Below, one piece after another: positions 3 through 33,641 of a DNA stretch of 64,000 nt (positions are counted from its first letter, which is position 1; every line of letters starts with the position of its first letter). The DNA comes from Escherichia coli (GTDB lineage Bacteria > Pseudomonadota > Gammaproteobacteria > Enterobacterales > Enterobacteriaceae). Position numbers and translations under genes: made by a program. The stretch lies in assembly GCF_024502345.1 (NCBI RefSeq), contig NZ_JALDNN010000001.1; one strand, 5' to 3'. The notes below the pieces were generated by a model. The model was not told where the DNA came from. It ran no database searches and was given only the letters and a program-made list of their open reading frames with translations.

Positions 3-989
3 ATGACGCCGTGGGACGATGCCATCGCGCAGTGGAGTTTTGATAAAGGCCTGCCTGCGGGCGCGGGCACCGACACGTTACCCGGCGTGCCGTACCAGAT
101 TTTGCCGTTAAAAAGCGGTGAGAAAACCTACGGGCTGGTGGTGGTGGAACCGGGGAATCTGCGTCAGTTGATGATCCCGGAACAGCAGCGCCTGCTGGAG
201 ACGTTTACGCTGTTAGTCGCCAATGCGCTTGAGCGGCTGACGCTGACCGCCAGCGAAGAACAGGCGCGGATGGCAAGCGAACGTGAACAGATCCGCAACG
301 CCCTGCTGGCGGCGCTTTCGCATGATTTACGCACTCCGCTCACGGTGTTGTTCGGTCAGGCAGAAATCTTAACGCTCGATCTGGCAAGCGAAGGATCGCC
401 CCACGCCCGCCAGGCCAGCGAGATTCGTCAGCATGTGCTGAACACTACCCGACTGGTGAATAATCTACTGGATATGGCGCGAATTCAGTCCGGCGGCTTT
501 AATTTGAAGAAAGAGTGGTTAACGCTGGAAGAAGTAGTCGGCAGCGCGCTGCAAATGCTGGAACCGGGTTTATCGTCGCCCATCAACCTTTCTCTGCCAG
601 AACCGCTGACCTTAATCCACGTTGACGGGCCACTCTTTGAACGGGTGCTGATTAATCTGCTGGAGAACGCGGTGAAATATGCGGGTGCGCAGGCGGAAAT
701 TGGTATCGATGCCCACGTTGAGGGCGAAAATCTACAACTGGATGTCTGGGATAACGGCCCCGGTCTTCCGCCAGGCCAGGAGCAGACGATATTTGATAAA
801 TTTGCTCGCGGGAATAAAGAGTCGGCAGTACCGGGTGTAGGGCTTGGACTGGCAATTTGTCGGGCGATAGTGGATGTACACGGGGGCACTATTACCGCGT
901 TCAACCGACCGGAAGGTGGTGCCTGTTTTCGTGTTACACTTCCCCAGCAAACTGCCCCTGAACTTGAAGAATTTCATGAGGATATGTGA
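3..989 (+). CDS. kdpD: Sensor histidine kinase KdpD, C-terminal 328 aa (5' end lies outside window)
   Basis: ORF open at window edge; H-box (SHDLRTPL) and HATPase motifs (DNGPGL, GVGLGL); stop overlaps kdpE start (ATGA). Confidence 0.95.
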   Translation: MTPWDDAIAQWSFDKGLPAGAGTDTLPGVPYQILPLKSGEKTYGLVVVEPGNLRQLMIPEQQRLLETFTLLVANALERLTLTASEEQARMASEREQIRNALLAALSHDLRTPLTVLFGQAEILTLDLASEGSPHARQASEIRQHVLNTTRLVNNLLDMARIQSGGFNLKKEWLTLEEVVGSALQMLEPGLSSPINLSLPEPLTLIHVDGPLFERVLINLLENAVKYAGAQAEIGIDAHVEGENLQLDVWDNGPGLPPGQEQTIFDKFARGNKESAVPGVGLGLAICRAIVDVHGGTITAFNRPEGGACFRVTLPQQTAPELEEFHEDM

Positions 990-1663
990 CAAACGTTCTG
1001 ATTGTTGAAGATGAACAGGCTATTCGTCGCTTTCTGCGCACGGCGCTGGAGGGCGACGGTATGCGCGTCTTTGAGGCCGAAACGCTGCAACGCGGCTTGC
1101 TGGAAGCGGCAACCCGTAAGCCAGATTTGATTATTCTCGATCTCGGCCTGCCCGATGGTGATGGGATTGAGTTTATCCGCGACCTGCGCCAGTGGAGCGC
1201 GGTGCCGGTGATTGTGCTTTCCGTACGCAGCGAAGAGAGCGACAAAATCGCCGCGCTGGATGCCGGAGCGGATGATTATCTAAGTAAGCCGTTTGGCATT
1301 GGCGAATTGCAGGCCCGTCTGCGCGTCGCTTTACGCCGCCACTCCGCCACCGCCGCGCCAGATCCGCTGGTGAAATTTTCCGATGTTACCGTCGATTTAG
1401 CCGCCCGCGTGATTCACCGGGGTGAGGAAGAGGTGCATCTCACGCCGATTGAATTCCGCCTGCTGGCGGTGCTGCTGAATAATGCCGGGAAAGTGCTCAC
1501 CCAGCGCCAACTCCTTAACCAGGTGTGGGGGCCAAACGCGGTCGAACACAGTCATTATTTGCGTATTTATATGGGACATCTGCGACAAAAACTGGAACAG
1601 GATCCCACCCGCCCCCGCCATTTCATTACTGAAACCGGTATTGGGTATCGGTTTATGCTTTAG
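986..1663 (+). CDS. kdpE: Response regulator KdpE (OmpR family)
   Basis: 225 aa; receiver domain plus winged-helix C-terminus; translationally coupled to kdpD. Confidence 0.95.
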   Translation: MTNVLIVEDEQAIRRFLRTALEGDGMRVFEAETLQRGLLEAATRKPDLIILDLGLPDGDGIEFIRDLRQWSAVPVIVLSVRSEESDKIAALDAGADDYLSKPFGIGELQARLRVALRRHSATAAPDPLVKFSDVTVDLAARVIHRGEEEVHLTPIEFRLLAVLLNNAGKVLTQRQLLNQVWGPNAVEHSHYLRIYMGHLRQKLEQDPTRPRHFITETGIGYRFML

Positions 1664-1673
1664 GCGGTTAAAT

Positions 1674-1772
1674 GCTGGATCCGGCATGAACGCCTTATCC
1701 GGCCTACAAAATCGCTTAAATTCAATATATTGCACCATCCTCGCAGGCCTGATAAGCGTAGCGCATCAGGCA
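1674..1772. repeat. REP/BIME element (Y-type REP, spacer with IHF-like motif, inverted Z-type REP; RIP-like)
   Basis: gccggat..cgccttatccggcctac and aggcctgataagcgtagcgcatcaggc palindromic units; near-identical copies at 9104-9201 and 17516-17614. Confidence 0.8.
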
Positions 1773-1792
1773 ATTCTGTGTTTGTCATACGT

Positions 1793-1826
1793 AAAAAAGG
1801 GCGATCTTGCGACCGCCCTTTTTTTA
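1793..1826. terminator. Bidirectional intrinsic terminator between kdpE and pgm
   Basis: GC hairpin gggcgatcttgcgaccgccc flanked by A-run upstream and T-run downstream. Confidence 0.7.
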
Positions 1827-1836
1827 TTAAATGTGT

Positions 1837-3477
1837 TTACGCGTTTTTCAGAACTTCGCTAACAATCTCAACCGCTTCTTTCTCAATCTGCTTGCGATGT
1901 TCTTCACCGAGGAAGCTTTCGCAGTAGATCTTATATGCGTCTTCCGTGCCTGACGGACGCGCGGCGAACCAGCCGTTGTCAGTCATCACTTTCAGACCGC
2001 CAATAGAAGCACCGTTGCCCGGAGCAGCAGTCAGGCGCGCGGTGATCGGATCACCTGCCAGGGTGCTGGCGCTCACCATTTCCGGAGACAGCTTAGACAG
2101 CGCCGCTTTTTGTGCGGAAGTCGCAGCTGCCTGCAAACGGTTGTAGCTCGGCGCACCAAAGCGTTTTGCCAGTTCGTTGTAGTGTTCCTGCGGGTTCTTA
2201 CCGGTGACAGCGGTGATTTCCGCCGCCAGCAGACACATGATGATGCCGTCTTTGTCGGTGGACCACGGCGTGCCGTCGAAACGCAGGAAGGAAGCCCCTG
2301 CGCTCTCTTCGCCGCCAAAGCCGAAGCTGCCGTCGAACAGACCATCAACAAACCATTTGAAACCTACCGGGACTTCTACCAGCTTGCGGCCCAAGTCATT
2401 GACCACACGGTCGATCATCGCAGAAGAAACCAGCGTTTTACCGACAGCAACATCTTTGCTCCACTGCGGACGATGCTGGAACAGGTAGTTGATCGCCACC
2501 GCCAGGTAGTGGTTCGGATTCATCAAACCTGCCGGAGTGACAATACCGTGACGGTCATAATCCGGGTCGTTAGCAAACGCCAGATCGAACTTATCACGCA
2601 GTGCCAGCAGGCCTGCCATTGCACACTCAGAGGAGCAGTCCATACGGATCGCGCCGTCTTTATCAAGGTGCATAAAGCGGAAGGTTTGATCGACCTGATC
2701 GTTAACGATAGTCAGGTTGAGGTTGTAATACTCGCCAATACGCTTCCAGTATTCGATACCGGAACCGCCCAGCGGATCAACGCCAAGCGTCAGGCCCGCT
2801 TTCTGAATCGCCGCCATATCAACGATATCGGCCAGCCCTTCCACAAACGGCTGCACCAGATCCTGCTCTTTCACATGACCGGATGCCATCGCTTCGTCGA
2901 GGGAGATACGCTTCACGCCTTTCAGGCCATCGGCCATCAGTGCGTTGGCTCTGTCTTCCACCACTTTAGTGACGTTGGTATCTGCCGGGCCACCATTTGG
3001 CGGATTGTATTTGATTCCACCATCTTCCGGCGGGTTATGGGACGGTGTAATCACGATACCGTCTGCCAGCGGGCCACCTTTTTTATTGTGAACCAGGATG
3101 GCATTGGAAACGGCAGGCGTCGGGGTGAAGCCATTGTTTTCCTGCACAATAACATCTACGCCGTTCGCTGCCAGCACTTCCAGTACGGAAATGAACGCAG
3201 GCTCGGACAGGGCGTGAGTATCTTTACCCACATAGCAAGGGCCAGTGATGCCGTTTTTCGCACGTTCTTCAGCAATTGCCTGAGCGATCGCCAGAATGTG
3301 CGGCTCGTTAAAGCTGTGGCGCGCTGCACTGCCACGGTGACCGGAAGTACCGAATTTCACCGCGTGCTCCGCATTCCCTGCTTCTGGTTTCAGTACATAA
3401 TATTGCGCCGTCAGTTGGGCGACGTTAATCAAATCACTCTGTTGTGCAGGTTGGCCTGCACGATTGTGGATTGCCAT
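1837..3477 (-). CDS. pgm: Phosphoglucomutase
   Basis: 546 aa from internal Met (MAIHNRAG...); TSGHRGS and SHNPPEDGG motifs; six-frame ORF carries a 17-codon upstream extension. Confidence 0.95.
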
Positions 3478-3502
3478 TGCTTTGTCCTTTGTCTGCAACG
3501 TT

Positions 3503-4048
3503 TTAGATAGTTCCGCAAACCTTCTCAATCAATTCCGCCGGGAATTGCATCGACTGCATGATGTGTTCGATCATGCTGCATTTACGGCCGGTGTTGGTGT
3601 TGGTGATCACCCAATACGGCGTGCCTGGCACATGTTTCGGCTTGGTCTGATTACCATTTTTCAGCAGCGTTTGTTCATCTGCCGCAAAGTAAACGCGTGT
3701 ACGACCGTGCAACGATTCCGTTGCTTCGGCAAACGCCTGGGCGTCAAGAGAATATAGTGTAGACAACAGCAGCATAAAGCGATTGACCGCTCGCTTTTGC
3801 TCTGCGTATTCATCCGAAAGCAGAAGTTCACGCATTGCGCGAACCTTGTCTTTAATCGTTTTGACCGGCTTCGCTTCGACGATAGCAGGTGACGCAACGC
3901 GAACCTCTTTCGTCACCAGAGCAGCAGGCTGTGATGCGGCGGAAAATTTCAACATACGCCGTAAAATGTCGGATGCGCTCTCGCCGATATGCTTAGTGTG
4001 GCTGGCAATATAGCTGTAGAGTTCATCATCAACTTCAATCGTTTTCAT
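3503..4048 (-). CDS. seqA: SeqA, negative modulator of replication initiation
   Basis: 181 aa from internal Met ([13 protein letters not shown]...); ORF track start at 4183 is an N-terminal extension. Confidence 0.92.
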
Positions 4049-4232
4049 CTTAATCCAGTGCAGTGTCTTAGCTGAATACAAGTCGCCAGGAGTATATGAA
4101 TAAATCCCGGCAGCGGATAGCGTCAAGCCTGGCTTGCAGAAAAACTCGGAATAAACCTTATTTGTTGCAGCCCTGTGGCACAATGGTCAACATAATACCC
4201 TAACCCGACAACGCGAAAAAAAGAACTTTGCC

Positions 4233-4997
4233 ATGAAATTGAATATCCGCGCGCAAACTGCACAAAACCAGCACAATAATTCTCCCATCGTTCTTGTCCA
4301 TGGTCTGTTTGGCAGCCTCGACAACCTTGGCGTACTGGCTCGCGATCTGGTAAACGATCACAATATCATCCAGGTTGATATGCGTAACCACGGTCTTTCA
4401 CCGAGAGATCCGGTAATGAATTACCCGGCGATGGCGCAGGATCTTGTTGATACTCTGGATGCACAGCAGATCGACAAAGCAACATTTATCGGTCACTCCA
4501 TGGGCGGTAAAGCGGTAATGGCACTTACTGCACTGGCTCCCGATCGCATCGATAAACTGGTGGCGATCGATATCGCACCGGTCGACTATCACGTTCGCCG
4601 GCATGATGAGATTTTCGCGGCCATCAACGCAGTCAGTGAATCGGACGCACAAACTCGCCAGCAAGCAGCAGCAATAATGCGCCAGCATCTTAATGAAGAA
4701 GGGGTGATTCAGTTTCTGTTGAAATCTTTTGTTGACGGGGAGTGGCGCTTTAACGTGCCGGTATTGTGGGATCAGTATCCGCATATTGTGGGTTGGGAGA
4801 AAATCCCGGCATGGGATCACCCTGCCCTGTTTATCCCTGGTGGTAATTCTCCGTATGTTAGCGAGCAGTACCGTGATGATTTACTGGCACAATTTCCACA
4901 GGCACGGGCGCATGTGATTGCAGGCGCGGGTCACTGGGTCCATGCTGAAAAACCGGATGCGGTATTACGCGCTATCCGTCGCTATCTCAATGATTAA
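4233..4997 (+). CDS. ybfF: Esterase YbfF (alpha/beta hydrolase)
   Basis: 254 aa; GHSMGG nucleophile-elbow motif. Confidence 0.9.
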   Translation: MKLNIRAQTAQNQHNNSPIVLVHGLFGSLDNLGVLARDLVNDHNIIQVDMRNHGLSPRDPVMNYPAMAQDLVDTLDAQQIDKATFIGHSMGGKAVMALTALAPDRIDKLVAIDIAPVDYHVRRHDEIFAAINAVSESDAQTRQQAAAIMRQHLNEEGVIQFLLKSFVDGEWRFNVPVLWDQYPHIVGWEKIPAWDHPALFIPGGNSPYVSEQYRDDLLAQFPQARAHVIAGAGHWVHAEKPDAVLRAIRRYLND

Positions 4998-5136
4998 CGC
5001 AACTGATTAAAAACCCAGCGTCCGCGTCGCTTTCCGCGCGTGGGCGTTGGCGTGACTCATCGCGCTGATGTATTATGGCGCGCTATCCATCCGGGCAGAG
5101 GCCTGGCTGATTGTTTCCCCCGAAGTCACCAAGATC

Positions 5137-5430
5137 ATGGCCAAAGAACAAACGGACCGTACGACATTAGATCTGTTCGCGCACGAGCGTCGACCGGGAC
5201 GACCGAAAACAAATCCGCTTTCGCGCGATGAACAGCTGCGTATTAATAAACGCAACCAACTAAAACGCGACAAAGTACGTGGCCTTAAGCGTGTCGAACT
5301 GAAGCTGAACGCGGAAGCTGTCGAGGCGCTGAACGAGCTGGCGGAATCGCGCAATATGAGCCGTAGCGAACTGATCGAAGAGATGTTAATGCAGCAACTG
5401 GCGGCGCTGCGTAGTCAGGGCATCGTTTAA
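5137..5430 (+). CDS. ybfE: Small conserved protein YbfE (annotated as LexA-regulated)
   Basis: 97 aa from internal Met MAKEQTD...; basic, helical. Confidence 0.8.
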
Positions 5431-5569
5431 ATTTCCACTTTCATGTAGCACAGTGTGCAGTCCTGCTCGTTTGCTGATTCCGCAAGACTGCCTGTTCTGC
5501 TATGATTGCCTTTATCCGTGGGCAATTTTCCACCCCCATTTCAATAAGTTTCAAGAGGTTATTTCACTC

Positions 5570-6100
5570 ATGGCTATCACTGGCATCTTTTTCGGCAGCG
5601 ACACCGGTAATACCGAAAATATCGCAAAAATGATTCAAAAACAGCTTGGTAAAGACGTTGCCGATGTCCATGACATTGCAAAAAGCAGCAAAGAAGATCT
5701 GGAAGCTTATGACATTCTGCTGCTGGGCATCCCAACCTGGTATTACGGCGAAGCGCAGTGTGACTGGGATGACTTCTTCCCGACTCTCGAAGAGATTGAT
5801 TTCAATGGCAAACTGGTTGCGCTGTTTGGTTGTGGTGACCAGGAAGATTACGCCGAATATTTCTGCGACGCATTGGGCACCATCCGCGACATCATTGAAC
5901 CGCGCGGTGCAACCATCGTTGGTCACTGGCCAACTGCGGGCTATCATTTCGAAGCATCAAAAGGTCTGGCAGATGACGACCACTTTGTCGGTCTGGCTAT
6001 CGACGAAGACCGTCAGCCGGAACTGACCGCTGAACGTGTAGAAAAATGGGTTAAACAGATTTCTGAAGAGTTGCATCTCGACGAAATTCTTAATGCCTGA
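5570..6100 (+). CDS. fldA: Flavodoxin 1
   Basis: 176 aa from internal Met ([16 protein letters not shown]...); flavodoxin FMN-binding signature. Confidence 0.95.
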
Positions 6101-6103
6101 TGT

Positions 6104-6133
6104 GATGCGGCGTAGACTCATGTCTACGCCGCA
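6104..6133 (+). terminator. Hairpin downstream of fldA (partial terminator or processing site)
   Basis: gatgcggcgtagac / gtctacgccgcatt inverted repeat immediately after fldA stop. Confidence 0.5.
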
Positions 6134-6305
6134 TTAATAGATAATGCCAATCAAAATAATTGCTACAAATTTGTAACTTTTGCTGTTGTACCTGTACAAT
6201 GTCCCGGTGTTCAAGTGGCCTTGCCGTTGTAAATGTAAGCTGTGCCACGTTTTTATTAACAATATTTGCCAGGGACTTGTGGTTTTCATTTAGGCGTGGC
6301 AATTC

Positions 6306-6324
6306 TATAATGATACGCATTATC
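6306..6324 (+). promoter_or_regulatory. Fur box in fur/uof promoter region (autoregulation)
   Basis: TATAATGATACGCATTATC matches the 19-bp Fur consensus GATAATGATAATCATTATC at 15/19 positions. Confidence 0.6.
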
Positions 6325-6396
6325 TCAAGAGCAAATTCTGTCACTTCTTCTAATGAAGTGAACCGCTTAGTAACAGGACAGATTCCGCATGACTGA
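6310..6396 (+). CDS. uof: uof, upstream-of-fur leader peptide (28 aa)
   Basis: MIRIISRANSVTSSNEVNRLVTGQIPHD; 3' end overlaps fur start, consistent with translational coupling. Confidence 0.8.
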   Translation: MIRIISRANSVTSSNEVNRLVTGQIPHD

Positions 6397-6835
6397 TAAC
6401 AATACCGCCCTAAAGAAAGCTGGCCTGAAAGTAACGCTTCCACGTTTAAAAATCCTGGAAGTTCTTCAGGAGCCGGACAACCATCACGTCAGTGCGGAAG
6501 ATTTATACAAACGTCTGATCGATATGGGTGAAGAAATTGGTCTGGCTACGGTATATCGCGTACTGAACCAGTTTGACGACGCTGGTATCGTCACCCGCCA
6601 CAATTTTGAAGGCGGTAAATCCGTATTTGAACTGACACAGCAACATCACCACGATCACCTGATCTGCCTCGACTGCGGCAAGGTTATCGAATTTAGTGAT
6701 GATTCCATCGAAGCGCGTCAGCGTGAAATTGCCGCAAAACATGGCATTCGCCTAACTAACCACAGTCTCTATCTTTACGGTCACTGTGCCGAAGGCGATT
6801 GCCGCGAAGATGAACATGCGCACGAAGGCAAATAA
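6389..6835 (+). CDS. fur: Ferric uptake regulator Fur
   Basis: 148 aa; HHHDH and CxxC metal-binding motifs. Confidence 0.97.
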   Translation: MTDNNTALKKAGLKVTLPRLKILEVLQEPDNHHVSAEDLYKRLIDMGEEIGLATVYRVLNQFDDAGIVTRHNFEGGKSVFELTQQHHHDHLICLDCGKVIEFSDDSIEARQREIAAKHGIRLTNHSLYLYGHCAEGDCREDEHAHEGK

Positions 6836-6850
6836 GCCAGCCTGAATGAG

Positions 6851-6880
6851 AAAAAGCCAACCTGCGGGTTGGCTTTTTTA
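6851..6880. terminator. Intrinsic terminator after fur (bidirectional with chiQ)
   Basis: aaaaagccaacc-tgcg-ggttggcttttttat. Confidence 0.8.
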
Positions 6881-6919
6881 TGCAAGGGAAATAAGAAAAG
6901 CGAGAGTTACAGCTCTCAC

Positions 6920-7246
6920 TTATTTGTTATTACTGCGAATTTCCTGCCAAACTTTATCACAATCGGCTTTCACCGCCTGATCATTTCCGGTTTGCGTTGC
7001 ACGCAGACACTGCTGATAATCCAGTACGCGGACACTTTCCTGGTCGGCAAAATGCTGATGTTGTTTCTCTTTCTTCAGCACGTTTAACACGCTCTGGCAG
7101 GCTTCAATTTTTTCTGGCGAACCTTGTGCGGTGTTGATACAGGCGCTGTATGCCTCTTTCAGACGACTGTCTTCCTGTGGCGCGGTTGATTGCGCACAAG
7201 CTACCAGCCCCGATGCCATTATGGCGATGAGAATCAGTTTTTTCAT
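6920..7246 (-). CDS. chiQ: Lipoprotein ChiQ (YbfN)
   Basis: 108 aa; signal peptide with lipobox LVAC. Confidence 0.85.
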   Translation of the reverse strand: MKKLILIAIMASGLVACAQSTAPQEDSRLKEAYSACINTAQGSPEKIEACQSVLNVLKKEKQHQHFADQESVRVLDYQQCLRATQTGNDQAVKADCDKVWQEIRSNNK

Positions 7247-7295
7247 TGAAAATTCCTCAAACGTGCGGCAGGCACAAAACCTGCCGCGTCGTGCA

Positions 7296-8702
7296 TCAGA
7301 AGATGGTGAATGGTGCGATTACCATAAATTTCACGTCACGCTCATCCTGGAAGATGTTACCGTAACCGCCGCCCCAGCTTGGGATGTCGGAGTGGTTGTC
7401 GTATTCGGTGAAGTGCAGTTTGAACATCGTGCCTTTGGCGCGACCGTCCTGAATGGTGTAGACCGCATCCAGGCTGTAGGCAGACTCTTCAATAGTCCGG
7501 TTTTTGTCGTAGTACGCATCCGGATTGCTCTGCCAGGTCGCAGGTTTAGCATCCCATGCGTAAACGTAGGAAGCGCCGATGGCGAAGCCTGGAAGATTCC
7601 AGTTTTTCAGGTCATACATCGCACCGAAGAAGACCGCTTTTTCGCCGTTAGCGTTGAAGTCGGAACGGTTATCCCACCAGATATCCAGGCGGCCGTTGGA
7701 GGAAGCGTAGGTTGGAGTCATACGTTGCAGGAAGTATCCCTGCTGACCGTCAGCCTTAACCCAGGTGCCTTCGAGGCGCAAATCCACTACGTCAGCCGCC
7801 CGGTAACCAAAGGTCAACGCTTGCAGCCAGGCGGTGCCGTCATAAAGGTCGTTGACGCTGCGATCGTCAACTTTATCGCGCGTACCATAGAACTGGTAGC
7901 TGGTGGTTAACGGGCTACCGGCGATATCAAATTTGTAGCTGGCTTTGGCAAAATATTGATCGATATACCCTTCCGCCTGACCAAATGCCGCTTCCAGTAC
8001 GAAGTTATTTTTGAAGTCGTATTTCGCCCCAAGGGAGTGCAGATAATCAACTTTGGTGGTTTTATCGTTCTGATAAAACTCATCCATTTCCAGATGCCAC
8101 GGCGCTTTGTATTCGTTGGTCCACATGTAGGAGAAACTCAACGCACCAGCATCGCCGTAATCAAAATTCGCCCCGGCTTCCGCCCCCTGATAAGTACCTG
8201 GCATAAAGCTCCAGTGCGGCGCTAACAGCGTTTGACCAGTTGGCTGAATGTAACCTGCCCTCGCCCAAACCGGACCGTATTTAAATTTGGCCGCAGCTTT
8301 ATACAGGCTTATACCGCTTTTGTCGCCGGACCAGTCTTCGTCATAGGCTTTATTACTTTTTGAAAACGCGATTTCGTTCGGGTGGGAGCTGTCGCCGTTT
8401 TCCGCCATTTCAATCGCCGTAAACGCAGCAATATCAAGGCCGAACATATCAGCAGCATAACCGGACTGAAAATCGAGGTTGGCATTCCAGGTGGAGTGAG
8501 AAAGGTTGGTTTTGTATTTGTCGCCGTCGGTAACATCTTTACGGTCGCGTTCACGCTGCCAGTAATATATACCGCCGGTTAAGGTTGAATCGTCGATGAA
8601 TCCTTCGGCGCGAGCCTCCGGCATTGCCATAAAGCCCGACATTGCTGTAACACCGGCGATAGCCAGCGCCAGCGTACTACGTTTGCCACTAAACGTACGC
8701 AT
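7296..8702 (-). CDS. chiP: Chitoporin ChiP (YbfM), OprD-family outer-membrane porin
   Basis: 468 aa; N-terminal signal peptide; C-terminal aromatic residue (...PFTIF) typical of beta-barrels. Confidence 0.9.
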
Positions 8703-9103
8703 GGGTTAATCCTCTTTGACGTATAAATTGCTGCACCAAAGGTGAACAGCGAAAAAATAAAAATTAAAAAAGTAGCGTTGAGAAAAGTCTCGCTGACTAC
8801 AGGAACAGACTATTTTTCGCGGCGCGAATTATCAATCTCTTTCTGTAACCAGAATGTAAGAACATGAGCAACCGCACATATTTTGATGATTTTTGTTACA
8901 AGGCTTAAGTTTGCGGTTGAAAGGCTTGCAGAAGAATAAAAGCGTGAATTTCCAGCAAGATGAAAGCGGTTACATTTTATTTAATTATGTTTTGTTATTT
9001 TAAATTTATTTTATGGATAAATTGCGAAGCGGAATTAATTCGTGAAGAAAAGCAGAAAAAAACGCCGCAGACCGCGGCGTTTAGGATTGTTTGCATGTTT
9101 CTT

Positions 9104-9267
9104 GCCGGATGCGGCGTGAACGCCTTATCCGGCCTACAAAAGCACGCAAACTCAATATATTGCAGAGATCATGTAGGCCTGATAAGCGTAGCGCATCAGG
9201 CAATTTAGCGTTTGAAACTGTTTGTCTGTTCCTTGCCGGATGCGACGTAAACGCCCCATCCGGCATA
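9104..9267. repeat. BIME cluster: Y REP, IHF-like spacer, inverted Z REP, plus a third REP unit
   Basis: gccggatgcggcgtgaacgccttatccggcctac ... taggcctgataagcgtagcgcatcaggc ... gccggatgcgacgtaaacgccccatccggcat. Confidence 0.85.
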
Positions 9268-9280
9268 GCGAAACGTAAAA

Positions 9281-10945
9281 TTACTCGCCAACTTTCGCCC
9301 AGGTATCACGCAGCCCAACGGTGCGGTTAAATACCGGTTTTTCGGCAGTGGAATGGCGGCTGTCGAGGCAGAAGTAACCTTCACGCTCAAACTGGAATGC
9401 TTTACCCGCTACCGCATCTTTCAGCGACGGTTCAGCAAAGCCCTGTTTGATCACCAGCGATTCCGGGTTAATCACCGACAGGAAATCATCCGCAGCACCT
9501 GGGTTCGGCACGCTGAACAGACGGTCATACAAACGGATTTCAACCGGCAGCGCATGTGCCGCGCTCACCCAGTGAATAACACCTTTGACTTTACGACCAT
9601 CTGCCGGATCTTTGCTTAAGGTATCGGCGTCATAAGTACAGAAGATGGTGGTGATATTACCTTCGACATCTTTCTCGACGCGTTCTGCCTTAATCACATA
9701 AGCATTACGCAGACGCACTTCTTTACCGAGCACCAGACGTTTGTACTGCTTGTTAGCTTCTTCGCGGAAATCGGCGCGATCGATCCAAATCTCACCGCTA
9801 AACGGCACCTGACGGCTGCCCATTTCCGGTTTGTTCGGATGGTTCGGCATGGTAACCATTTCGCCTTCGCCCTGATAGTTTTCGATAACCAGTTTCACCG
9901 GATCGATAACCGCCATTGCGCGCGGCGCATTTTCGTTGAGATCTTCACGGATGCAGGATTCCAGCGACGCCATCTCAATGGTGTTGTCCTGCTTGGTCAC
10001 GCCGATGCGTTTGCAGAACTCACGAATAGAAGCCGCAGTGTAACCACGACGACGCAGACCGGAAATGGTCGGCATACGCGGGTCATCCCAGCCTTCAACG
10101 TGCTTATCGGTCACCAGCAGGTTCAGCTTACGCTTGGACATCACAGTGTATTCCAGATTCAGGCGCGAGAATTCGTACTGGCGCGGGTGAACAGGAATGG
10201 TGATGTTGTCCAGTACCCAGTCGTACAGACGACGGTTATCCTGGAACTCAAGCGTACACAGAGAGTGCGTAATACCTTCCAGAGCATCGCTGATGCAGTG
10301 GGTGAAGTCGTACATCGGGTAGATGCACCACTTGTTGCCAGTCTGGTGGTGTTCAGCAAATTTAATGCGGTACAGCACCGGATCGCGCATCACGATAAAC
10401 GGTGAAGCCATGTCGATTTTCGCACGCAGGCAGGCTTTACCTTCTTCAAAACCGCCGGTACGCATTTTCTCGAACAGCGCCAGGTTCTCTTCAACGCTAC
10501 GGTCGCGGTACGGGCTGTTTTTACCAGGCTGCGTCAGGGTGCCGCGGTATTCGCGGATCTGTTCCGGCGTCAGTTCATCAACGTACGCCAGGCCTTTATT
10601 GATCAGTTCGATCGCATAGGCGTGGAGCTGATCAAAATAATCGGAGGAGTAACGGACGTTACCAGACCAGTGAAAACCTAACCACTCTACGTCGTTTTTG
10701 ATCGACTCAACATACTCGATATCTTCTTTTACCGGGTTAGTGTCGTCGAAACGCAGGTTGCACTGGCCTTTATAGTCCTGGGCGATCCCGAAGTTCAGGC
10801 AGATAGATTTCGCATGGCCAATATGCAGATAGCCATTCGGCTCCGGCGGAAAACGGGTGTGTACTGTGGTGTGCTTACCACTGGCCAGATCTTCATCGAT
10901 GATCTGACGGATAAAGTTAGTCGGGCGGGCTTTTGCCTCACTCAT
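9281..10945 (-). CDS. glnS: Glutaminyl-tRNA synthetase
   Basis: 554 aa; HIGH motif (HIGHAKS) and VMSKR (KMSKS-type) motif. Confidence 0.97.
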
Positions 10946-32364: not shown

Positions 32365-32379
32365 CATTTATCAGTAATT

Positions 32380-32412
32380 AAAATCACCACCTTAAAATGT
32401 GGTGATTTTTTC
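32380..32412. terminator. Bidirectional intrinsic terminator between rihA and the downstream convergent small ORF
   Basis: aaaatcaccac-cttaaaat-gtggtgatttttt; U-run available on both strands. Confidence 0.75.
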
Positions 32413-32426
32413 CATATTCATTAATA

Positions 32427-32816
32427 TCAATCAACTGTGACTTTTTTCCCAAAATCCTCTTCTGCAATCCAGGTTAAAAACGATGTATCGGCGCCACCTA
32501 ATTTAACAACGCGATCATATAACATCATAACACCAAAATCATGTTCGATATCCCAGGAGCATGAGAACTCGAAACCAATATAAGGCTGGCCATTATTATG
32601 CACCGATAAAATATGTATCGCTAATGGTGATAACAACTTTGAAAAATCCTCTTGAGTTCCAACATCTGGCATATACAACTCTTTTTCTTCCTCGTCATAG
32701 TCATATTGCCCTTGTAAATCAGGATATTTTTTCATAAGTTCCGAAAGAATGGATGCCAAAATTTCAGATTGATGAACAATAATATACTGTAACCCAGTCT
32801 TATGGCATTCGCTCAT
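32427..32816 (-). CDS. Hypothetical acidic protein (129 aa), function unknown
   Basis: Intact ORF in an AT-rich island; by my count 23 acidic versus 9 basic residues; no signal peptide or TM segment; no motif I recognise. Confidence 0.6.
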   Translation of the reverse strand: MSECHKTGLQYIIVHQSEILASILSELMKKYPDLQGQYDYDEEEKELYMPDVGTQEDFSKLLSPLAIHILSVHNNGQPYIGFEFSCSWDIEHDFGVMMLYDRVVKLGGADTSFLTWIAEEDFGKKVTVD

Positions 32817-32855
32817 ACATGAAGTTGGATCATCGCCACCAAGGCTGTAGTATAA

Positions 32856-33377
32856 TTATTCAGCCTCATCACCGAAAAAACTCACCCAGGATGATAAGAC
32901 TATTGGTTCACAGACTCGGTCATCCTCATACTCTGGTTCCGACAATATTTTAGGTTCATCAAGATGACGGTTAAAAAACTCCATACATGCACGGTTACGG
33001 GTAAAGATATATTCTTTATTTTCATCATAACTACGTTGAAAATAGTTAAGCGCATCATCCTCTGCTCCACACGCATAAAGGCACTCACCGCGATAGTAAT
33101 TAACAATATAGTATTCATTTATTTTTCTGTTGACATGGTTATCACCTATAGTTAGCCAACGCTTAACATTTTCAATGTCTTTTAACTTAATATATTCATT
33201 CACCATCCTGCCAATAATGATATTGGCATCATGTATTTTATATTTTTCCTCATCCATGATGCTCCACTGACATTCAATAAATTCAATAATATCCGTTGAT
33301 GTAATATTGCTATTTTTGAGCATCGAGCGGTCCAGAAAACTATAAATCTCTGCTACTTTCTCTAACGCATTTGACAT
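32856..33377 (-). CDS. Hypothetical acidic protein (173 aa), function unknown
   Basis: Intact ORF with aagaggga RBS before ATG; by my count ~34 acidic versus ~20 basic residues; five Cys; no motif I recognise; 39-bp gap to the downstream ORF suggests an operon. Confidence 0.6.
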   Translation of the reverse strand: MSNALEKVAEIYSFLDRSMLKNSNITSTDIIEFIECQWSIMDEEKYKIHDANIIIGRMVNEYIKLKDIENVKRWLTIGDNHVNRKINEYYIVNYYRGECLYACGAEDDALNYFQRSYDENKEYIFTRNRACMEFFNRHLDEPKILSEPEYEDDRVCEPIVLSSWVSFFGDEAE

Positions 33378-33641
33378 AACATCCCTCTTAAATCAATCTA
33401 AAACTAATGCTAAATATTTAAAATATTGATGATTCGGTAGAATGCATATTAAAAGGAGGAAGAGCGCCTGGCTCTCCCTCACGTGCTGTTAAAAAAGTTG
33501 AACTAAAAATGATAGATAGTAACAACGCTACGCTGACAGCCACTCTTCCCATGTCGACATTCCTGAATGTATTCCCTTTTTCTTCATTCCAACAGAAATG
33601 GTATTCGACATAAATCGCTAACAGCGTGCGAAATCATACTA

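Follow-up and report, generated by a model that had tools for sequence, protein, structure and literature searches.

An Escherichia coli DUF6985 gene split by a nonsense codon, in a small islet between rihA and ybeL

Two small open reading frames, ORF173 and ORF129, lie next to each other between rihA and ybeL in the window (the whole 64,000-nucleotide stretch of Escherichia coli DNA analyzed here). Comparison with other alleles and with homologues indicates that ORF129 is almost certainly the 3' remnant of a 316-codon gene that was split by a CAA-to-TAA change at codon 174, which makes it a pseudogene. The 316-codon gene is horizontally acquired. We tentatively propose, with slightly less than even confidence, that the ancestral protein may have been an orphan immunity protein of a polymorphic-toxin system. 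Taken as a whole, this account of the locus is in our judgment very probable. It corrects the gene model: the two RefSeq genes are a single pseudogene, split by a nonsense codon and located in a small islet of horizontal origin, and there is no new two-gene system.

A DUF6985 domain divided between two reading frames

ORF129 (32427..32816, minus strand) runs from ATG to TGA over 129 codons. A sequence-only reading had described it as a very acidic, predicted soluble protein, and its translation bears this out: it contains 23 acidic (D+E) versus 9 basic (K+R) residues, includes a DYDEEEKE stretch, has a pI of 4.49 and shows no hydrophobic segment. ORF129 matches Pfam DUF6985 (PF22481), a family of unknown function, with E=5e-23 and 82.7 bits (gathering cut-off 24.5), so it is a genuine coding sequence and not a chance open reading frame. 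The acidic YDYDxEEK stretch is a conserved motif of this family, and ORF129 also encodes the invariant core C-x-W-D-x-E-H-x-x-G-x-M (C273, W275, D276, E278, H279, G282 and M284). The Pfam match spans only positions 46-146 of the 148 in the profile; ORF129 itself corresponds to residues 188-316 of the ancestral protein.

ORF173 (32856..33377, minus strand) is the 5' fragment. It encodes a TPR-like helical domain (residues 1 to ~136) and, after a linker, the beginning of DUF6985, namely a strand (156-158) and a helix (162-174) that includes the invariant W164. The Shine-Dalgarno-like AAGAGGG at 33383..33389 (minus strand), read from the upstream sequence, lies 5 nt before its ATG and is the ribosome-binding site of the original gene. 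The translation of ORF173 is an exact match to E. coli WP_256632811.1. RefSeq lists the two halves as separate genes, one for a hypothetical protein and the other, as a normal CDS, for a DUF6985 protein.

The gap between the two frames is 39 nt, on the same strand, and both are in one frame. Translation of 33377-32427 reads ...VLSSWVSFFGDEAE*LYYSLGGDDPTSCMSECHK..., with a single TAA at codon 174 (32856..32858, minus strand) followed by 13 in-frame codons (LYYSLGGDDPTSC; 32817..32855, minus strand) before the ATG of ORF129. These codons encode the 'xIGGD' segment and DUF6985 strand 176-179. The start methionine of ORF129 is an internal codon that is not conserved among homologues, and no Shine-Dalgarno sequence precedes it (upstream sequence GGCGATGATCCAACTTCATGT). 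Stand-alone relatives of ORF129 (50-54% identity) are 169-170 aa long and have ~45 additional N-terminal residues. The C-terminus of ORF173 together with the 13 inter-ORF codons aligns to this missing N-terminal part of DUF6985 ('L.SW..FF', 'IGGD'). When the stop is replaced, the Pfam match grows from positions 46-146 to positions 10-146 and runs across the junction. The whole ancestral coding sequence (32427..33377, minus strand) thus comprises 316 codons plus a stop, joins the TPR-like N-domain to DUF6985 and contains one internal nonsense codon.

The structure predicted by AF2 for the repaired 316-aa protein (pLDDT 91) starts with an all-helical N-domain (residues 1-136), which a linker connects to an alpha/beta domain (~155 to 310). 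In this model the TAA codon marks the last position of helix 162-174, strand 176-179 comes from the inter-ORF codons, and ORF129 starts at residue 188. The stop therefore lies within DUF6985, and ORF129 could give only a domain without its first strand-helix-strand. About 30% of the domain is missing from ORF129, including W164; the nearly invariant L161 and F167 are likewise encoded in ORF173. Any ORF129 product would arise by inefficient re-initiation at a fortuitous internal ATG that has no ribosome-binding site. The gene in this genome is most likely a pseudogene, from which the N-terminal 173-aa fragment is possibly still made.

Intact and disabled alleles

The window and strain 88-3493 (L001) have T at position 32858; FDAARGOS_943 and 873.10 (L003 and L004) have C there, so that their codon 174 is CAA (Gln), as it is in intact alleles. 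An intact 316-aa homologue with 95% identity (P0008) has Q at position 174; its gene lies at the same rihA-ybeL locus on three metagenomic or Logan contigs (L005-L007), with 96% nucleotide identity. The named members of the protein cluster include a 316-aa and a 330-aa 'DUF6985 domain-containing protein [Escherichia fergusonii]', and the E. coli entries of the same cluster are 173-aa, 129-aa and shorter pieces. Twelve more full-length homologues have 305-329 aa and 45-60% identity. The two-domain protein is encoded at 23 of 73 loci taken from species-representative genomes (in Flavobacterium, Pedobacter, Myroides and Campylobacter), and its N-domain matches there with E=1e-34 to 1e-50. From the shared frame, the CAA alleles and the intact homologues it follows that the ancestral gene encoded one 316-aa polypeptide and that the window carries a Q174* allele. 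The sequence-only reading had paired ORF129 with the 173-aa ORF as a two-component module or as two tandem orphan genes; instead they are the halves of one 316-codon gene with a CAA-to-TAA change. The same reading had stated that it would be refuted if ORF129 proved to be a pseudogenised piece of a gene that is longer in related strains, and the intact 316-aa alleles and Q174* show just this.

Other E. coli alleles contain additional lesions. Both other E. coli allele groups have the nonsense mutation K47* (A to T at 33239), and the FDAARGOS_943 / 873.10 group additionally has 1-bp deletions at 32681 and 32480, with TAA in place of GAA at 32570. Given these extra lesions, all 12 of the complete E. 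coli genomes with the islet appear to carry disabled alleles, a count for which three genomes were checked by sequence and the others were assigned from identical annotation patterns.

The allele of strain 88-3493 is a mosaic, with a 5' half of the FDAARGOS_943 type, a 3' half of the window type and a breakpoint between 33056 and 32858. All four combinations of K47 or *47 with Q174 or *174 occur (window 32427-33377 compared with L001, L003 and L004), implying either recurrent mutation or exchange by recombination in a gene already dead. In Campylobacter, the two-domain gene often directly follows rlmN, and several copies are truncated or split (loci L051, L054-L057, L059, L061-L064, L066, L071, L072, L074, L079 and L091). 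The decay has therefore been repeated in an unrelated lineage too.

The islet at the rihA-ybeL site

The window is a segment of the E. coli chromosome with the gene order gltI-gltJ-gltK-gltL-rihA, islet, ybeL-leuS-lptE, and the flanks of the islet are 98.6-99.1% identical to ordinary E. coli. The islet itself (32367..33640) is an AT-rich segment of 1274 bp, with ~36% GC against 51% in the window, and occupies the whole stretch between rihA and ybeL, which are convergent. It was found in 12 of 5426 complete E. coli genomes. Many other E. coli (for instance L002) have only a 36-bp hairpin spacer at this site, and K-12 has an 8-kb island, ybeQ-ybeR-djlB-ybeT-ybeU-djlC-hscC. The site is thus an insertion hotspot that holds a 36-bp spacer, the 1.27-kb islet or the 8-kb ybeQ-hscC island (window 32365-33641; L002, L011 and L094). 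In one enterobacterium the chaperone island, an intact DUF6985 gene and a 319-aa gene of unknown function all occur there, and some strains have IS1 and IS5 insertions. The 319-aa gene precedes the L011 homologue; a search for its remnant in the 264 bp upstream of ORF173 found none.

A hairpin with an 11-bp stem and A and T runs on either side (32380..32409) lies between the convergent rihA and DUF6985 genes. It folds on both strands, with energies of -13.4 and -14.5 kcal/mol (z-scores -5.3 and -3.9), and resembles a bidirectional terminator; a consensus terminator scan did not report it. A second, G+C-rich, terminator-like hairpin (33456-33480, minus strand) lies within the islet, past the end of ybeL and ahead of ORF173. 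A separate promoter for the islet gene is therefore probable, somewhere in the ~80 bp that precede the ribosome-binding site of ORF173. We found no convincing sigma-70 match in that stretch.

Alternative explanations

We considered a functional two-protein module, in which the 173-aa and 129-aa products would reassemble non-covalently or act separately as a pair of small immunity-like proteins. The Q174* allele, each half of which is otherwise an open frame, is frequent in E. coli: more than 100 contigs have the 173/129 arrangement (variants of the 173-aa ORF on 68, 19, 11, 7 and 3 contigs), and one or both fragments may thus retain some function. In addition, the RefSeq annotation treats the 129-aa ORF as an ordinary gene, and the 39 nt from the stop to the next ATG make termination-reinitiation conceivable. 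A dN/dS of ~0.2 between the window and the intact allele also fits such a module. However, this value mainly reflects the time before the mutation, because two Q174* alleles compared with each other give ~0.86, a ratio based on the small numbers of 3 synonymous and 11 non-synonymous changes. The cut moreover falls inside a compact domain, 13 conserved codons would be lost from both products, and ORF129 has no Shine-Dalgarno sequence. Further stops and frameshifts build up in the sister E. coli alleles, and an intact two-gene version occurs in no lineage. The N-domain-only genes found elsewhere, which as natural stand-alone genes would favor a two-gene module, are decayed copies (the two best candidates were checked). 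We regard the module as improbable. It is even harder to believe that the window encodes an intact 316-aa protein, with the TAA being an assembly or sequencing error or being read through. The window is indeed one base away from an intact reading frame, but we reject this explanation because the TAA recurs in independent assemblies: it is present in independently sequenced complete genomes (L001, checked by sequence, and six more with its annotation pattern), and the 173-aa and 129-aa products are recorded from many assemblies. TAA is also the most efficient terminator in E. coli, and no readthrough signal is evident. An artifact or readthrough is extremely unlikely.

The remaining alternative concerns the function of the protein, which could have no role in immunity and instead assist the HscC/DjlB/DjlC Hsp70 chaperone island as an accessory whose TPR-like domain docks onto the Hsp70. 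A full-length homologue (60% identical) in L011 does lie beside Sel1-DUF1266-DjlB-DUF1266-DjlC-HscC, the K-12 island occupies the same rihA-ybeL site, and some of the weak Foldseek TPR matches of the N-domain are Hsp70/Hsp90-binding TPR domains. We nevertheless reject the link because both gene sets occur independently: in the window the gene is present and the island absent, and in K-12 the reverse holds. The neighbor families listed for the 73 other genomic loci include neither Hsp70 nor DnaJ families, and the TPR matches are generic (E-values 0.04-0.4). A chaperone accessory is thus very unlikely.

Genomic context of the DUF6985 family

The DUF6985 family comprises 1767 cluster representatives (50% identity clustering) at E<=1e-3. 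Most of the best 150 representatives cover positions ~2-165 of the 167-position profile that we built. The family is acidic throughout, with a median pI of ~4.6 and 94% of 68 genomic members below 5.5. Acidity by itself is therefore no sign of immunity, because it is a family-wide property. The N-domain is a single conserved 150-aa unit that is found only with DUF6985. All of its Foldseek matches are TPR proteins, with TM-scores of 0.5-0.6 on the target, and the N-domain of ORF173 scores 15.8 bits against Pfam TPR_2, below the cut-off of 27.

In three Clostridia-type assemblies (L015, L018 and L021), stand-alone DUF6985 genes, which encode the relatives that are 50-54% identical to ORF129, come directly after a toxin tip with matches to Pfam WHH and Colicin-DNase. 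Where the gap was measured, 9 bp (L021) and 35 bp (L015) separate the toxin from the DUF6985 gene, and the L021 toxin bears an Rhs core-end motif. The three toxins are related (65-84% identical), so these cases represent one toxin-immunity lineage and not three independent observations. The L021 locus (2605-10210, an uncultured Roseburia MAG) contains four tandem cassettes in which the ~350-aa N-region of the Rhs tip is 88-94% identical and the C-terminal toxin domains differ. In one of the cassettes the toxin domain is WHH, with DUF6985 after it; a further cassette may have a domain similar to DUF4258. The array looks like a textbook orphan toxin/immunity array.

Elsewhere in the family, DUF6985 is fused to SUKH (SMI1_KNR4), to DUF4303, to ankyrin repeats or to a second DUF6985 in tandem. 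Neighboring genes include SUFU, SUKH (2), Imm3, Imm19 and Imm11. At most of the 73 genomic DUF6985 loci the neighbors are mainly housekeeping genes, and neither a toxin gene nor a secretion system adjoins the DUF6985 gene there. The same is true of the window, where the gene is flanked by rihA and ybeL and the islet encodes no toxin.

Profile and structure searches linked the protein to no catalogued immunity or defense family. No SMI1_KNR4 or other SUKH profile matched ORF129, ORF173 or the read-through protein at E<=1, and no Pfam Imm family, including Imm28 and Imm37, matched any of 17 DUF6985 domains at E<=10. The PADLOC models gave no match at E<=1, NCBIfam gave no match, and the best Foldseek hit among the BFVD viral structures had an E-value of 0.08 and a probability of 0.16. 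Searches of the PDB by sequence, with ORF129 and with the 17-sequence domain profile, returned only chance matches (E>=0.26). No literature was found under DUF6985 or the older label DUF2004. The affinities to SUKH, Imm or anti-restriction proteins for which the sequence-only reading had suggested profile searches were thus not recovered for this protein. Its view of ORF129 as immunity-like finds support at the level of the family, in the adjacency to WHH toxins and in the SUKH, DUF4303 and Imm context; the size and charge on which it had been based do not support it.

Discussion

On the strength of this family context, we suggest that DUF6985 may be an uncatalogued immunity domain for the WHH (HNH-fold) nucleases of Rhs and other polymorphic toxins, with a fold that has no solved relative. 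The TPR-fused form would be an orphan immunity gene, repeatedly gained and lost at chromosomal hotspots in enterobacteria, Bacteroidota and Campylobacter. We hold this proposal to be possible, and put it somewhat below an even chance. When competitors deliver a WHH-type (HNH/EndoVII-fold) nuclease toxin, the acidic DUF6985 domain would bind it and block its action; the gene would be kept while such toxins are met and would decay once they are not. If this is true, the window would show one step in the decay of a TPR-fused orphan immunity gene.

Small acidic nuclease inhibitors are well known from Im7 and Im9, the immunity proteins against colicin E-group DNases, and from barstar. DUF6985 proteins resemble them in being acidic and cytoplasmic, in having no enzymatic motifs and in being encoded beside a nuclease toxin. 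The likeness to Im7/Im9 extends to the toxins, since those of L021 and L015 also match Pfam Colicin-DNase.

Three immunity families have been reported for Tox-WHH: Imm-SUKH, Imm28 and Imm37/SNCF2 (Zhang et al. 2011 and 2012; PMC3113570, PMC3482391). As in these families, the stand-alone DUF6985 gene directly follows a WHH toxin tip, and the domain is alpha+beta, sometimes fused to SUKH, located in mixed immunity neighborhoods and distributed over many phyla. In contrast to them, DUF6985 has no sequence match to SUKH or to Pfam Imm models, and its immunity role is putative. DUF4303, one of its fusion partners, has been proposed as an immunity domain for Rhs tips (bioRxiv 10.64898/2026.07.13.738213).

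Immunity and polyimmunity proteins show the same patterns of fusion and neighborhood, including fusions to TPR repeats and sites away from toxin genes (PMC3482391; PMC3113570). The ancestral protein of the window likewise combines a TPR-like repeat domain and an immunity-type domain in one polypeptide encoded away from a toxin gene, as described for polyimmunity proteins (PMC3482391). It differs from them in that its N-domain is not a generic TPR array, the match to Pfam TPR_2 being below threshold.

The proposal supplies a testable candidate function, immunity to WHH nuclease toxins, for a Pfam family of ~1,800 representatives without literature or a solved structure, and it names concrete putative toxin-immunity pairs in L015, L018 and L021. 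A further architecture was observed in four proteins of 400-470 aa (P0135, P0143, P0181 and P0195), in which DUF6985 is located at the C-terminus and is preceded by UBA-like domains. This combination looks eukaryotic and recalls the recruitment of SUKH into proteins of the eukaryotic ubiquitin system.
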